Part shown: piece by piece, positions 711-31,094 of the stretch
Layout of the letters: each line of letters begins with the position of its first letter
Numbering within the stretch: the stretch's first letter is position 1
Assembly: GCA_016205145.1 (NCBI GenBank)
Contig: JACQJH010000001.1
Location: 210,001 to 242,000 of the forward strand
Origin: Candidatus Iainarchaeum sp.
GTDB lineage: Archaea; Iainarchaeota; Iainarchaeia; Iainarchaeales; JACQJH01
Length of the DNA: 32,000 nt
Direction of reading: 5' to 3'
Notes under the pieces: model-generated
What the model was told of the DNA's origin: nothing
Database searches by the model: none
What the model saw: only the letters and a program-made list of their open reading frames with translations
Program-made: the position numbers and the translations under genes

Positions 711-773
711 AACCGGCGGTTTCGTCCGCCGGGTCCGAAACCAAGGCGTATTGCTGATGCAATACGCCGAGTA
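711..773 (+). repeat. Hairpin-module repeat, locus E: CCGGCGG-TTTCGT-CCGCCGG hairpin, GTCCGAAACCAA linker, GGCGTATTGC-TGAT-GCAATACGCC hairpin, then GAGTA.
   Basis: Read directly. Positions 714-749 are an exact 36-nt reverse-complement match to 21122-21157. Confidence 0.85.
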
Positions 774-841
774 TGCCAGCATATGATGCAAAAGTGCACA
801 CTTGGCTTGTATTTGTGCCTGCAACCGGAATCGTTTTTCTT

Positions 842-6964: not shown

Positions 6965-7125
6965 CGCCCGCACCGGGAGTCGGACCCGGCCCACGGCCTC
7001 GCTGCATTGCAGTACTCCATAAAAGAAACTTTTCTTTCTTTTTGGGGTAAAGCACTTTTTCTTTCTTCGCAAGAAAGAAAAAGGGCTTCGACAGGGCCGT
7101 ATCCTAGCCGATAGACCATACGGGC
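6965..7125 (-). tRNA. tRNA-Asp (GTC) with an approximately 89-nt intron at or near position 37/38.
   Basis: Hand fold:
- Acceptor: GCCCGTA/TGCGGGC, discriminator G.
- D arm: GTCT-ATCGGCTA-GGAT.
- Anticodon stem: CGGCC/GGCCG; loop CTGTCGA.
- T arm: CCGGG-TCCGACT-CCCGG.
- Intron: about 7000-7088. A CUGU/GCAG 4-bp helix flanked by 3-nt bulges (BHB-like) can be drawn. Confidence 0.8.
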
Positions 7126-13454: not shown

Positions 13455-14006
13455 TTGGTTTATCATGGTGGTTTGTTGGACATACTGAAGGCTTTGGCCA
13501 ACTCCAACCGGCGCAACATGGTCCAGATTCTCCTCAAAAAGGAAACCCACATTGCCGCGCTCGCAAGGGAATTGAACATTTCCAATCCGGTTGCATTGAA
13601 GCACGCGCGCATTCTTGAGGATAACGGCCTGATTGAACGGGAAAAAGCGGGGAACACGCACATACTGCACATCCGCAAGGACGCGCTCAAGAAAATACGG
13701 CTGGCATCGGAGCTTTTTGAAAAGCCAATTTCTTTCAGCGTCGCGAAAGGCACTTTGCTTTTGGACGCGCTTTCAAAGGTCGATGGCCTCGAGATCGAGA
13801 ACACGAAACAGGGCGCGTTCATCAAGGCAATTGACGGCAAGGAAGGCTACTTTGTCTTTGAAATCAACGGCAAGTTTCCGACAAAGCCGATCGAGGAAAT
13901 CGAAATTTCCGGCAGGACGGAAATCGAGTTGAAGCGCCTTCTGCCCGTCATCGGAAAAAAAATCGTTTTCGAAACAGCCGGTTCCGTCCGGCTGGTCCGG
14001 GACTAA
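13455..14006 (+). CDS. ArsR-family winged-helix regulator fused to a DUF4430-like C-terminal domain.
   Basis: HTH region: LDILKALANSNRRNMVQILLKKETHIAALARELNISNPVALKHARILEDNGLIE. C-terminal part: GTLLLDALSKVDGLEIENTKQGAFIKAIDGKEGYFVFEINGKFPTKPIEEIEISGRTEIEL. The true start is probably TTG 13473 or 13476, after GGTGG. Confidence 0.75.
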   Translation: MVYHGGLLDILKALANSNRRNMVQILLKKETHIAALARELNISNPVALKHARILEDNGLIEREKAGNTHILHIRKDALKKIRLASELFEKPISFSVAKGTLLLDALSKVDGLEIENTKQGAFIKAIDGKEGYFVFEINGKFPTKPIEEIEISGRTEIELKRLLPVIGKKIVFETAGSVRLVRD

Positions 14007-14135
14007 GGCGTATCGTTGCAAAATCTTGGATTTTGCGACGTGCCCAGAATCTGTGGATTCTGGTGCATGCTTACGCAATACGCCGAGTAATTCTATTCCG
14101 CATTTCGGGGTTTTACGCGGGGGTGTCCCATGTGT
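14007..14135 (+). repeat. Hairpin-module repeat, locus D, an expanded version.
   Basis: The outer stem GGCGTAT...(GC)AATACGCC (14007-14084) encloses two inner hairpins, GCAAAATC-TTG-GATTTTGC and CCAGAATC-TGTG-GATTCTGG. It is followed by GAGTAA, CATTTCGGGG and a degenerate G/C hairpin. It fills the whole gap between two convergent genes. Confidence 0.8.
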
Positions 14136-19365: not shown

Positions 19366-19523
19366 TCCCTCCTCCCTGATTTGCACAGGGGATCTCACCG
19401 TTGCCGCTTTTTTCGCGGCGCAACAGCGTTCTTTCGAACCTGCTGCCCAGCCATTCAAGGCAGTGCACAAGAGCGTGCACGAAAATCTACAGCGGTGCGT
19501 GTTAGCTACTACACCAAGGAGGG
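19366..19523 (-). tRNA. tRNA-Tyr (GTA) with an approximately 85-nt intron.
   Basis: Hand fold:
- Acceptor: CCCTCCT/AGGAGGG (C1-G72), discriminator A.
- D arm: GTGT-AGTAGCTA-ACAC.
- Anticodon stem: CACCG/CGGTG; loop CTGTAGA.
- Variable region: AGATC.
- T arm: CCCTG-TGCAAAT-CAGGG.
- Intron: between loop and 3' stem, with a drawable BHB (CUGU/GCGG helix, AGA and CAA bulges). Confidence 0.85.
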
Positions 19524-19605
19524 CTCGGCATGCTGCCGAGCGTGCAGCCTTGTGGTATCGCTGACGCGATACCACGCGTGCCCGCCCAAAACAGTTCCTG
19601 CCGGC
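19524..19605 (-). other. Structured 5' leader of tRNA-Tyr (two hairpins). The TATA-like TTTAAAA is at 19629-19635.
   Basis: Minus sense: GTGGTATCGC-GTCA-GCGATACCAC, then GCTCGGCA-GCA-TGCCGAGC abutting tRNA nucleotide 1. The first hairpin is homologous to modules at 21349-21382 and 6902-6939. Confidence 0.55.
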
Positions 19606-20542: not shown

Positions 20543-20983
20543 TTAAACCTTTGTTTTCATTACGCGTTTCATGCCGGGAATTTCCACGCTTGAATAGTCG
20601 ACGCTCAGTCCTGCTTTTCCAAGCGCTTTTTTGAGCGCGTAAACCTTGCAAAACCCCGCCAACTCTTTCTGCTCGTTTTTCTGCAGGCTTTCGACTGCGG
20701 TTATCTCGTTTATCACGCCGTTGACTTTTCCGGAGGACGCTGCCTTCAGGATTTCCGCGATTTCGGCTTCCGATTTTCCGGCCGGCAGTTCGGCCAGCAT
20801 TGCGTCAAGCTTTTTCAAATCCACAAGCTTTCCGAGGTTCTGCTCCACTTTCTTGTCCACGCTTATCGTCAGGCTTGCCAGGAATTCCATTACCGTGCGC
20901 GGGTCGGTTTTCTCCTCTATCTTGAGTTTCTTGATTGCGACCCAGTCATCGTAGTTTGCGATTAATTGAATGCTCTTGTCCAC
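20543..20983 (-). CDS. Hypothetical soluble protein.
   Basis: 146-aa ORF, probably in an operon with the PAP2 gene (26-nt gap). No motif recognised. Confidence 0.55.
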   Translation of the reverse strand: MDKSIQLIANYDDWVAIKKLKIEEKTDPRTVMEFLASLTISVDKKVEQNLGKLVDLKKLDAMLAELPAGKSEAEIAEILKAASSGKVNGVINEITAVESLQKNEQKELAGFCKVYALKKALGKAGLSVDYSSVEIPGMKRVMKTKV

Positions 20984-21030
20984 GCTCTCACCTTGTAAAA
21001 ATAAGTTTCTGGTGGTTAAAAATCCACATG

Positions 21031-21160
21031 CTTACTCGGCGTTTCACAACGCAGGGGCCTTTGCCCCTTGCAAACCCCCGAAATATTTGTTGTGTCCTAC
21101 TCGGCGTGTCGCATCAGCGGCACGCCTTGGTTTCGGACCCGGCGGACGAAACCGCCGAGA
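21031..21160 (-). repeat. Hairpin-module repeat, locus B, which forms the tRNA-Lys 3' trailer.
   Basis: Minus-sense order of modules:
- CGGCGG-TTTCGT-CCGCCG hairpin.
- GTCCGAAACCAAGGCG-[TGCCGC TGAT GCGACA]-CGCCGAGTA.
- AAATATTTCGGGGG.
- GCAAGGGGC-AAA-GGCCCCTGCG.
- A truncated GTTGTGAAACGCCGAGTAAG. Confidence 0.85.
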
Positions 21161-21234
21161 CGAGCCCGGAGGGATTTGAACCCTCGACACGCGGATTAAG
21201 AGTCCGCTGCTCTACCAGGCTGAGCTACGGGCCC
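21161..21234 (-). tRNA. tRNA-Lys (CTT).
   Basis: GGGCCCGTAGCTCAGCCTGGTAGAGCAGCGGACTCTTAATCCGCGTGTCGAGGGTTCAAATCCCTCCGGGCTCG. Canonical cloverleaf, loop CTCTTAA, no encoded CCA. Confidence 0.95.
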
Positions 21235-21284
21235 AATTAGGGCGGTTAAATTTCGCTGGTCATTAAACTTGTTATTAATTCACT

Positions 21285-21307
21285 TATGCCCACTGATTTT
21301 AAACTTT
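21285..21307. repeat. Exact 23-nt direct repeat, copy 1 (TATGCCCACTGATTTTAAACTTT).
   Basis: Identical to 21553-21575. The minus sense AAAGTTTAAAATCAGTGGGCATA contains a TATA-like TTTAAAA. Confidence 0.9.
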
Positions 21308-21339
21308 TGTCAATGGGCTATTGGTCTTTTGGGGTTCGT

Positions 21340-21552
21340 GTTGGGCATGTGCGGTATCGGCGGTAGCGAAGATACCACAAACAGCACTGGCTTTTGCGTG
21401 ATGGCTTGCCCGGCGTATTGCGATACGCAATACGCCTTGGTTCCGCACGCAGGGGGCTCTGCCCCCTCGCACGCCCCCGAAACATTTACTACGATCACTC
21501 GGCGTATTGCGATTAGCAATACGCCTTTGTTCGCACCAGCCGGGCGTTCGGC
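21340..21552 (-). repeat. Hairpin-module repeat, locus C, about 1.5 composite units bracketed by the 23-nt repeats.
   Basis: Minus-sense order of modules:
- AGCCG-AACGCC-CGGCTGGTGCG.
- AAAGGCG-[TATTGC TAATC GCAATA]-CGCCGAGTG.
- AAATGTTTCGGGGG.
- GCGAGGGGGC-AGA-GCCCCCTGCG.
- CCAAGGCG-[TATTGC GTATC GCAATA]-CGCC.
- GGTATC...GATACC hairpin. Confidence 0.85.
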
Positions 21553-21575
21553 TATGCCCACTGATTTTAAACTTT
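21553..21575. repeat. Exact 23-nt direct repeat, copy 2.
   Basis: Identical to 21285-21307. It lies 10 nt beyond the tRNA-Thr 3' end. Confidence 0.9.
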
Positions 21576-21584
21576 GCAGTGCCA

Positions 21585-21658
21585 AGCCTTGGGAGGGATT
21601 TGAACCCTCGACCAGCAGTTTACAAAACTGCGGCTCTACCAGGCTGAGCTACCAAGGC
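21585..21658 (-). tRNA. tRNA-Thr (TGT).
   Basis: GCCTTGGTAGCTCAGCCTGGTAGAGCCGCAGTTTTGTAAACTGCTGGTCGAGGGTTCAAATCCCTCCCAAGGCT. Anticodon stem GCAGT/ACTGC, loop TTTGTAA. Confidence 0.95.
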
Positions 21659-21741
21659 GGCTGTAGAATTGTTGTTTGGGCAATTTATTAAAAGATTGTC
21701 GGGGTTGCCCTAGCGCATTTTGTTTGCTTGTTTTGGCCGTT

Positions 21742-22290
21742 TCAGAATGACAGTTTTTCGCGCTTTCTTTTTTCGCCTATCAGGCCGAAAATGAGTTCCT
21801 GCGTTCCTTCCGGGTCGGGAACCGCAAGCAATGAGCCTTCGGCGCCGAACCTGTTGTTGTATGTTATCTGGCCGGCAAGGCTTTGGATGTGCACGCTTCC
21901 GAAGCCGAAAATGCTTTCTGCAAAGGAGCGCGAGATTATGGCGTCTGAAATCCTTTCAAGCGGAATGGAGTTTACCTTGTAGCCTATGAAGCCGCTTTTC
22001 TGGATTATTCTCTTATTGGTTATCCAATAGTGCTGCTTGTTGTAGCGCCAGAATGCTCCAAGCAACGGTATGAGGATAATGCCAACAAAGCCCAGGGAGA
22101 AAACCGTCCACAGCAGTCCGCCGGGCGAGCCCGAAAAAATGCCTCCGAATATAAGCGGAGTGAAGAAAATTCCTATTAAGAGGAACAGGATTATTCCTGG
22201 CACGAGCCAATACCAGAGCAGGCCGCCCACAGGCTTGATTTCCTTGATTATTTTTTCGCCTTCCTGCAAATTGAACGGCCGGTTTTCCAT
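21742..22290 (-). CDS. Membrane protein with a bacterial-type PH domain (YdbS/DUF304-like).
   Basis: 182-aa ORF with two TM helices, then ...HYWITNKRIIQKSGFIGYKVNSIPLERISDAIISRSFAESIFGFGSVHIQS... Confidence 0.7.
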   Translation of the reverse strand: MENRPFNLQEGEKIIKEIKPVGGLLWYWLVPGIILFLLIGIFFTPLIFGGIFSGSPGGLLWTVFSLGFVGIILIPLLGAFWRYNKQHYWITNKRIIQKSGFIGYKVNSIPLERISDAIISRSFAESIFGFGSVHIQSLAGQITYNNRFGAEGSLLAVPDPEGTQELIFGLIGEKRKREKLSF

Positions 22291-27090: not shown

Positions 27091-27236
27091 TGCCCCGGCC
27101 GGGATTCGAACCCGGGTCGCGGCCTCACCCCGCTCTTGAATTTTTTGGAAAATCCTTGAGAGGGCCGAGTGCTTTCGGCAACAGCTGCTTTTTTTTATAA
27201 AAACAAACCGTTTTAGCCGGACTACACCACCGGGGC
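27091..27236 (-). tRNA. tRNA-Glu (CTC) with two introns: about 40 nt in the D-loop/D-stem junction and about 31 nt at 37/38.
   Basis: Hand fold:
- Acceptor: GCCCCGG/CCGGGGC, discriminator A.
- D arm: GTGT-AGTCCGGCTAA-[intron about 27173-27212]-GCAC.
- Anticodon: CGGCC-CTCTCA-[intron about 27126-27156]-A-GGCCG.
- T arm: CCGGG-TTCGAAT-CCCGG.
- Length: spliced length 75 nt.
- Downstream: a T-run follows the 3' end. Confidence 0.85.
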
Positions 27237-30927: not shown

Positions 30928-31021
30928 GCTTTTCCAAAAAGCCCCGGCTGGGAAAATTTAATAACTGTTCGAGGTTTTAGTCAATAAACGAAGGCCGATG
31001 ATGACCAGGCTGAGATTTGAG

Positions 31022-31094
31022 AGCCGCTTTCGTCCGGCTGGTTCGACGCCCCATGCCAATTTCATTCGCATGGGGCTGCGCGCTGTTGCGCGGG
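31022..31094 (+). repeat. Hairpin-module repeat, locus H.
   Basis: AGCCG-CTTTCGTC-CGGCTGGTTCG, then GCCCCATGC-...-GCATGGGGC, then TGCGCGC-TGTT-GCGCGGG. It lies downstream of asd. Confidence 0.6.

Follow-up and report, generated by a model that had tools for sequence, protein, structure and literature searches.

The GC-rich hairpin modules that trail tRNA-Lys and tRNA-Asp in this genome are probably copies of a lineage-specific, non-coding and mosaic family of mobile hairpin elements, and would be passengers rather than a dedicated tRNA-processing signal. On this reading the family is a selfish one, and it inserts head-first at the ends of tRNA genes.

By the window we mean the whole 32,000-nt stretch of DNA analysed here (C1:210001-242000). 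It is part of a genome (G000) of two contigs, C1 and C2, with a size of 1.25 Mb, a GC content of 51% and a completeness of 97.8%. The host is an archaeon, judging by its intron-bearing tRNAs, its archaeal RNase P and SRP RNAs, and its archaeal CCA-adding enzyme. Genes for tRNA processing are present in the genome, namely those for RNase Z (348 bits), the CCA enzyme (389 bits) and RNase P RNA (122 bits). The RNase Z gene is located at C2:508514-509410.

Modules at the tRNA genes of the window

As claimed in an earlier, sequence-only reading, tRNA-Lys lacks an encoded CCA and runs into a trailer with the order hairpin, GAGTA, G-run, GC hairpin and 5'-truncated second unit. The sequence bears out this order, and Rfam and ARAGORN agree with it on the tRNA. 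The same reading placed a 7-bp hairpin next to the discriminator; a hairpin does start there, after 3 nt, with a stem that we read as 6 bp. The parts of the trailer are listed below (R1 is a covariance model of the A-B unit; L016 is a metagenome contig).

21234-21161, minus strand: tRNA-Lys(CTT), 74 nt, discriminator G at 21161, without encoded CCA (Rfam RF00005, 68.2 bits; ARAGORN; sequence)
21160-21158, minus strand: TCT between the discriminator and hairpin A (sequence)
21157-21140, minus strand: hairpin A (the head), 6-bp GC stem, loop TTTCGT
Between hairpins A and B, minus strand: linker GGTCCGAAACCAAGG
21135-21131, minus strand: CGAAA, possible pseudoknot partner in the A-B unit, which also contains the linker AACCAAGG
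21126-21103, minus strand: hairpin B
21102-21098, minus strand: GAGTA, followed by a spacer
21157-21098, minus strand: whole A-B unit, starting 3 nt past the discriminator (R1, 79.1 bits; identical unit in L016)
21083-21075, minus strand: G-run TTTCGGGGG
21071-21051, minus strand: GC hairpin C
21050-21031, minus strand: GTTGTGAAACGCCGAGTAAG, the 3' half of a B hairpin, ending GAGTAAG at 21031
21097-21033, minus strand: C unit, 65 nt, made of TTTCGGGGG, hairpin C and the B-hairpin 3' half (A1 alignment, motif positions)
21022-21018, minus strand: first T5 downstream of tRNA-Lys, likely terminator

The B hairpin that is halved in GTTGTGAAACGCCGAGTAAG stands whole at 6728-6699. The direct repeat ACGCCGAGTA is found on both sides of the 65-nt C unit. 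The T5 run is the likely terminator of tRNA-Lys, shifted by about 136 nt by the inserted modules. A larger block separates tRNA-Lys from the neighbouring tRNA-Thr.

21658-21585, minus strand: tRNA-Thr(TGT), without a T4 run within 450 nt downstream
21552-21308, minus strand: module block of 245 nt separating the two tRNAs, in the order head, B, C, B, D-type hairpin

Exact 23-nt direct repeats (21575-21553 and 21307-21285) bracket the 245-nt block, which contains two R1 matches (C1:231493-231557 and 231404-231471). In view of the missing T4 run, a single transcript may extend over tRNA-Thr, the block and tRNA-Lys.

The tRNA-Lys(CTT) gene (window 21161-21234) is 95% identical over 111 nt to the tRNA-Lys(TTT) gene (G000 C2:634485-634595). 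The likeness takes in the TCT and the whole head, which is identical in the two loci, and the bodies beyond it differ. The pattern suggests a gene-conversion tract that would end at the junction of head and body.

The other module copies of the window are the following.

7125-6965, minus strand: tRNA-Asp(GTC) with an 89-nt intron, discriminator G at 6965 (ARAGORN intron mode; acceptor stem by eye)
6964-6600, minus strand: tRNA-Asp trailer array, 365 nt, about seven modules (sequence; BLAST locus C1:216600-216966)
19523-19366, minus strand: tRNA-Tyr(GTA) with an intron (anticodon loop CTGTAGA read in the sequence)
19524-19600, plus strand: head and D-type module on the strand opposite to tRNA-Tyr, the head adjoining the 5' end of the tRNA
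711-775, plus strand: solo A-B unit, antisense to both flanking minus-strand protein genes, top R1 match (87.1 bits)
13973-14135, plus strand: A-B unit with a nested two-hairpin insertion of about 54 nt in hairpin B, then a degenerate C unit

The earlier claim that tRNA-Asp is arranged like tRNA-Lys, with a module right behind the discriminator, is confirmed. The discriminator is followed by AA and the head GCCG-TCACGCC-CGGC-TGGTGCG, so that the gap is 1-2 nt. The array then continues with D-, C-, F- and E-type hairpins, a full A-B unit (6759-6697), a C unit and one more B unit. Its end is marked by a T6 run, and 2 nt separate the array from the stop codon of a convergent ORF. For tRNA-Tyr, the earlier reading had placed modules in the 5' leader. 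There is indeed a module at this place, but it is inverted, lying on the opposite strand with its head towards the tRNA 5' end.

The nested insert at 13995-14075 (GCAAAATCTTGGATTTTGC... CCCAGAATCT..GGATTCTGG) is present inside the hairpin-B stem of about nine A-B units, and is an insertion into the repeat itself. The intron of tRNA-Asp is filled by an AT-rich palindromic element (window 6999-7087), which consists of CTTTTTCTTTCTTGCGAAGAAAGAAAAAG and a second A/T-rich arm. This element recurs in a tRNA-Trp intron (G000 C2:336280-336360) and, in a relative of the same order, in the spacer between tRNA-Glu and tRNA-Thr (L002:280-366). It looks like a second small repeat family that is associated with tRNA genes. 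Finally, a pair resembling a C-box and a D-box (ATGATGA ... CTGA) directly precedes a head-like hairpin, AGCCGCTTTCGTCCGGCTGGTTCGA, at window 30993-31045; this could be a small-RNA gene or a further variant of the module.

Standard tRNA annotation is defeated here by large, repeat-filled introns. Rfam misses both tRNA-Asp and tRNA-Tyr in the window. ARAGORN in intron mode labels two of the five tRNAs of the window wrongly, calling tRNA-Tyr(GTA) (19366-19523) 'Asp' and a tRNA-Glu with two introns (27091-27236) 'Trp'.

A structured repeat family

Iterated BLAST searches from the window copies define a family of about 124 loci, which together make up 16.2 kb or 1.3% of the genome. The modules are not a product of chance: ACGCCGAGTA has 7 copies in the window, where 1.05 are expected, and 30 in the genome, where the expectation is about 2.5; model R1 finds 75 copies of the A-B unit in the genome; and hairpins are more frequent at tRNA 3' ends than at random positions (see below). 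The units are 58-71 nt in size, with about 60-70 nt for a head plus body and about 58 nt for separate C units. The head consists of hairpin A and GGTNCGA. The bodies are interchangeable, and comprise B and at least four other hairpin types. C units also stand alone in the genome, some of them flanked by target site duplications (TSDs). The arrays are mosaic and extragenic, are made up of imperfect palindromes, and contain some truncated units.

An alignment of 40 A-B units (A2, 70 columns) supports the hairpins. The A2 structure is 92% paired, compared to 78% in shuffled alignments and to 30-47% when the partners are slid against each other, and it contains 117 double-sided changes, compared to 34 in the shuffles. 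Covariation is seen for five of the seven pairs of hairpin A and for six of the ten pairs of hairpin B. The pairing of the loop UUUCG with the downstream CGAAA, which would create a pseudoknot, is 95% formed. As only one of its pairs covaries (UA in 31 units, CG in 4), we regard the pseudoknot as plausible rather than established. The single-stranded linkers CGAAAC, YAAGG and GAGTA are invariant in the A-B units.

The modules do not resemble a catalogued RNA. In a search of the window with Rfam 15, which includes the self-cleaving ribozymes, only tRNA reached the gathering score, and a permissive scan of 20900-21750 gave no other credible match. Readings as a kink-turn, loop E/sarcin-ricin motif, hammerhead, HDV-like or pistol ribozyme, or T-arm-like structure were rejected, as the conserved positions do not fit and Rfam is blank. 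A full-text search of the literature returned no description of such tRNA-docked hairpin elements; a MITE-like C/D-box element (PMC6009581) is unrelated to these modules.

Docking on tRNA genes

Our detector looks for a GC hairpin that starts within 5 nt of the gene end, and was also applied to 4000 random positions as background. It reports such a hairpin at 27 of the 47 tRNA 3' ends, in 23 cases together with the pseudoknot partner. The background frequencies are 7.8% for the hairpin and 3.1% for the hairpin with partner. By eye, heads are present at 29-30 of the 47 tRNA 3' ends, including two tRNA-Arg genes, whose last five bases serve the hairpin. At the 3' ends, the head starts at a near-constant distance of 1-4 nt past the discriminator and is always in the sense orientation. 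At 10 of the 47 tRNA 5' ends, a head is found on the opposite strand. When all tRNA flanks were read, the docked modules turned out to be head-first in all but one case. The modules dock on tRNA genes in a single orientation, with the head 0-4 nt beyond the acceptor helix, sense at the 3' end and antisense at the 5' end.

Docking is not universal, since about 17 of the 47 tRNA genes, or about a third, are without modules. Heads are also found at tRNA introns, at the 5' splice site in tRNA-Gly CCC and tRNA-Arg CCG, and at the 3' exon, in antisense, in tRNA-Trp. The ends of the RNase P RNA, SRP RNA and 5S rRNA genes of this genome carry no heads. Docking on stop codons is not supported in this genome: heads within 10 nt of the 3' end were found for 30 of 946 CDSs, which equals the detector background. 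On the gene map used here, which is a crude ORF map, the loci in spacers of tandem protein genes are oriented in sense in 26 cases and in antisense in 30. On the same map, a further 21 loci lie between convergent and 17 between divergent genes.

Three tRNA-Gly genes carry a different element of about 71 nt on their 3' ends (G000 C2:460162-460245, C2:600797-600870 and C1:450420-450505). It consists of a AGCCCATCG...GATGGGCT hairpin and a TTTTGATAAAACTTTT...AAAAGTTTT palindrome. At two of these genes, it has duplicated the last 10-12 nt of the tRNA.

Insertion footprints

The units insert into DNA with long and variable target duplications. Four solo units have direct repeats on both sides, which are 20, 20, about 31 and 35-47 nt long, compared to a longest control repeat of 14 nt in 2480 comparisons. 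At tRNA genes, a copy of the tRNA's own 3'-terminal 12-mer (with at most one mismatch) is found just past the inserted array for 5 of the 47 tRNAs, but only in 7 of 940 controls. Downstream of tRNA-Arg(TCG), at a distance of 131 nt, the 3' end of the tRNA is repeated over 16-17 nt, with an older head behind this copy, and tRNA-Pro(TGG) has the same layout. In tRNA-Gly(GCC), it is the different 71-nt element that parts the tRNA from the copy of its own 3' end, and the original T6 run comes next. The tRNA-Thr of a relative (L037) shows the same footprint, with a repeat of 13 nt. The duplications of tRNA ends imply one junction at the mature tRNA 3' end and another 10-20 nt inside the gene. Taken together, the duplications observed are 10-12, 13, 16-17, 20, 20, 23, about 31 and 35-47 nt long. 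No target duplication was found for the trailers of tRNA-Lys and tRNA-Asp.

The ends of the TSD-flanked units have no inverted repeat in common and no conserved termini; the palindromes are internal. There is microhomology at some junctions. At tRNA-Arg, the 3'-terminal GCCCG of the tRNA also serves as the head's 5' arm, and at tRNA-Pro the arm ACGCGC is part of the repeat. We considered that the 3' arm of the head might be templated from the target at the tRNA-Arg and tRNA-Pro junctions. This is ruled out by the TSD-flanked solo inserts, which hold both arms.

Two of the four long duplications contain a palindrome that ends exactly at the start of the element, TTTTCA-CT-TGAAAA (G000 C1:160827-160846) and CATGA...TCATG (C1:74132-74155). 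These two cases hint that the insertion point may follow a hairpin.

Relatives and turnover

Comparison with close relatives shows that single units are gained and lost. The metagenome contig L016, which has 87% amino-acid identity in a neighbouring 146-aa ORF, shares the promoter region, tRNA-Lys and the TCT, and its A-B unit is identical. Absent from L016 are the 65-nt C unit (window 21097-21033) and the 245-nt block, in place of which it has a single copy of the 23-mer. A T6 run stands directly behind the single A-B unit of L016, at a place equivalent to that of the T5 run of the window. The A-B unit of tRNA-Lys is kept in both close relatives examined. In another relative (L031), tRNA-Thr is 65 nt away from the same neighbouring ORF, with no module between them.

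Beyond the closest relatives, the family is lineage-restricted. Among 60 genomes of the same order, R1 gave seven weak matches, in three genomes. Of the 41 loci with the neighbouring ORF that were collected in a metagenome scan, L016 is the only one with an R1 match. When the GTDB species genomes were scanned for the motif, 82 single matches came up in unrelated bacteria, where about 65 would be expected by a rough chance estimate. A source of the elements was also sought in viral contigs and other GTDB genomes, where there are only scattered single matches, at about the chance level by estimate. In the loci obtained from relatives within the order, tRNA-Lys is mostly followed by a plain trailer, which is AT-rich or a T-run; in two of them, tRNA-Lys is followed by a head-like hairpin of different sequence.

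Transcription and processing

The sequence-only reading took the modules to be probably co-transcribed with the tRNAs. No run of four or more T's lies between tRNA-Lys or tRNA-Asp and their modules. Downstream of tRNA-Lys, the array reaches to +134 and the first T5 is at +136; for tRNA-Asp, the array reaches to +365 and the first T5 is at +362. In both cases, the T5 or T6 run stands just past the array and not inside the modules. Genome-wide, the median position of the first T5 is +177 for the 28 module-bearing tRNAs, compared to +40 for the 19 tRNAs without modules. Since T-runs are missing ahead of the modules and each array has its first T5 where it ends, co-transcription is likely for tRNA-Lys and tRNA-Asp.

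The modules are probably transcribed and then trimmed off with the tRNA. Each insertion settles between the tRNA and its oligo-T terminator, and the pre-tRNA would therefore be transcribed through the array up to the displaced T-run. RNase Z would cut at the discriminator, and the CCA-adding enzyme would complete the tRNA. The module RNA, removed by RNase Z and RNase P, would be a by-product.

According to the earlier reading, the modules could also act as determinants for RNase Z or RNase P. This is not supported by their distribution, since they are mostly absent from the tRNA-Lys genes of relatives, absent from about 17 of the 47 tRNAs of this genome, and randomly oriented between protein genes. 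They are also missing between tRNA-Thr and the ORF in L031, vary by single units among close relatives, and in some cases have target duplications on their flanks. A dedicated 3'-processing determinant would be expected at all orthologous tRNAs and at all tRNAs of the genome itself, and the modules are found at neither. A role of the RNA from the sense strand is further disfavoured by the base pairing. Among mispairs in the stems, G-U (11) is not in excess over A-C (17), and both strands of the tRNA-Lys trailer fold equally well (z-scores of -2.9 and -4.7). Together with the random orientation and the blank Rfam search, these data argue against such a role. The minimum-energy fold of the whole precursor does not recover the cloverleaf and is uninformative.

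A broader version of this idea is that selection maintains the head, or the entire A-B unit, as an RNA element of the pre-tRNA. It might aid RNase Z by keeping the trailer off the acceptor stem, block exonucleases, or be released as a pseudoknot-capped small RNA with a 5' end made by RNase Z. The head-first rule, the near-constant distance to the tRNA and the conserved linkers could indeed also result from selection for a function of the RNA at tRNAs. Such selection would account for a sense head at 27-30 of the 47 tRNA 3' ends, 1-4 nt away from the discriminator, for the 92% pairing and the 117 double-sided changes (34 when shuffled) of hairpins A and B, for the loop-CGAAA pseudoknot that is 95% paired, and for the invariant linkers. 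It would also fit the likely co-transcription and the unit that is kept at the tRNA-Lys of L016. However, the unit is missing at the orthologous tRNAs of most relatives and at about 17 tRNAs of this genome, it occurs in either orientation between protein genes, and it is antisense at tRNA 5' ends. The lack of a G-U excess, the single covarying pair of the pseudoknot and the absence of an Rfam match also count against it, and the target duplications point to insertion, not to a conserved gene structure. On balance, we consider a selected pre-tRNA element distinctly improbable.

The earlier suggestion that the modules are terminators fares worse. In its general form, it would have the modules of this compact genome serve as terminators or insulators at the 3' ends of its tRNA genes and protein genes. 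The modules are GC-rich hairpins that are often followed by T-runs, with a T5 no more than 40 nt from the array end in 12 of 28 tRNA arrays, and many of them occupy gaps at the 3' ends of convergent genes. However, archaeal RNA polymerase terminates at oligo-T and does not need a hairpin. A T-run directly follows the tRNA in relatives without modules, which indicates that it is older than the insertion. Several arrays end in A-runs or are not followed by a T5 for more than 200 nt. The random orientation to protein genes and the 17 loci between divergent genes are also at odds with termination, which appears very improbable as the function of the modules. The interpretation of the trailers as passengers of tRNA transcription is retained as the probable one.

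How the modules may spread

The genome was searched for enzymes that could mobilize the modules. Neither the Y1 transposase (PF01797; RAYT, TnpA), which was detected in control genomes, nor a reverse transcriptase (PF00078) nor Cas1 (PF01867) has a match in the genome, and the best score for TnpB (PF07282) is 16.7 bits, below the cut-off. As no gene for a transposase of the Y1 type or any other type, TnpB, reverse transcriptase or Cas1 was found, the case for mobility is made by the footprints. The only genes of recombinase type found in the genome are those for two tyrosine recombinases.

A weak tyrosine-recombinase-like ORF (404 aa, 28.8 bits) is located about 500 nt from tRNA-Leu(GAG) in locus L015 (G000 C1:503511-506975). 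It lies among several module-bearing tRNAs and may be the remnant of an integrated element.

Our proposal for the mechanism is tentative, and we would put its chances somewhat below even. The units may represent an undescribed class of structured insertion elements without terminal inverted repeats, which would recognize the ends of tRNA gene segments, namely the mature 3' end, the exon borders at introns and, on the opposite strand, the 5' end. Long staggered cuts would duplicate 10-47 nt of the target, and the machinery would be unlike any known transposase, reverse transcriptase or Cas1. Since heads are also found right at splice sites, archaeal tRNA introns may be seeded or enlarged in the same way.

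Alternatively, no dedicated enzyme may be involved, and the units may be spread by template switching during replication or by gene conversion. Forks would stall at the hairpins or at the heavily transcribed tRNA genes, the nascent strand would copy a unit elsewhere via microhomology, and its return upstream of the exit point would create a long and variable duplication. This scenario has the attraction that it would explain the lack of a transposase-like gene and of terminal inverted repeats or conserved termini, the duplications of 10-47 nt, the junction microhomology at tRNA-Arg (GCCCG) and tRNA-Pro (ACGCGC), the mosaic arrays with truncated units, and the identical heads with different bodies at tRNA-Lys(CTT) and tRNA-Lys(TTT). 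By itself, it leaves unexplained that the polarity at the two ends of tRNA genes is strictly head-first, and that the ends of RNase P RNA, SRP RNA and 5S rRNA genes are headless, and in the sequence its products would look the same as those of a trans-acting integrase. We consider template switching unlikely, though not markedly so.

If homing to tRNA gene ends is true, the consequences would reach beyond this genome. Pre-tRNAs of DPANN archaea would routinely carry 60-365 nt of folded passenger RNA, with which RNase Z and RNase P must cope. The annotation of tRNAs and the calling of introns would be affected in such genomes. There would be an archaeal integration mechanism without a known enzyme and with long target duplications, which may bear on the origin and spread of tRNA introns. 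The points of interest are the docking rule and the mobilizing mechanism. As a caution, covarying hairpins beside tRNAs are no proof of RNA function.

Comparison with known systems

Casposons and Cas1-mediated spacer integration (PMC5137440, and otherwise general background) resemble the system described here in integrating at tRNA 3' ends and in the unusual length of the target duplication. However, this genome lacks Cas1, and the elements are non-coding, only about 60 nt long, without inverted termini, and with duplications of no fixed length. Elements derived from IS200/IS605 (PATEs, omega-RNA ends) differ in their enzymes, since there is no TnpA(Y1) here and TnpB is below the cut-off. Likewise, SINE-like elements that spread by target-primed retrotransposition would need a reverse transcriptase, which was not found in this genome.

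Bacterial and archaeal MITEs are similar in being small, non-coding and multi-copy, in generating target duplications, and in their reliance on a factor in trans. Unlike MITEs, the modules have no terminal inverted repeats or conserved termini, their duplications are variable (10-47 nt) instead of short and fixed, and a cognate transposase was not found in this genome. The bacterial REP/BIME (REPIN) sequences are also short GC-rich palindromes in mosaic intergenic arrays, many of them at the 3' ends of genes. They are lineage-specific and strain-variable like the modules, and are co-transcribed, as the modules probably are. In contrast to REPIN-RAYT systems, this genome lacks the RAYT/Y1 transposase (PF01797), and the modules differ from REP/BIME sequences in their long target duplications, their head-first docking on tRNAs and their head with a possible pseudoknot.

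GC clusters of yeast mitochondria and the double-hairpin elements of Allomyces mitochondria are mobile GC-rich hairpins that are found between genes, beside tRNAs and in introns, and that are transcribed and then removed during tRNA processing. We know of no description of a docking rule at tRNA ends, or of a duplication of the tRNA 3' end, for these elements. Their sequences are unrelated to those of the modules, and the host here is an archaeal free chromosome instead of a mitochondrial genome.
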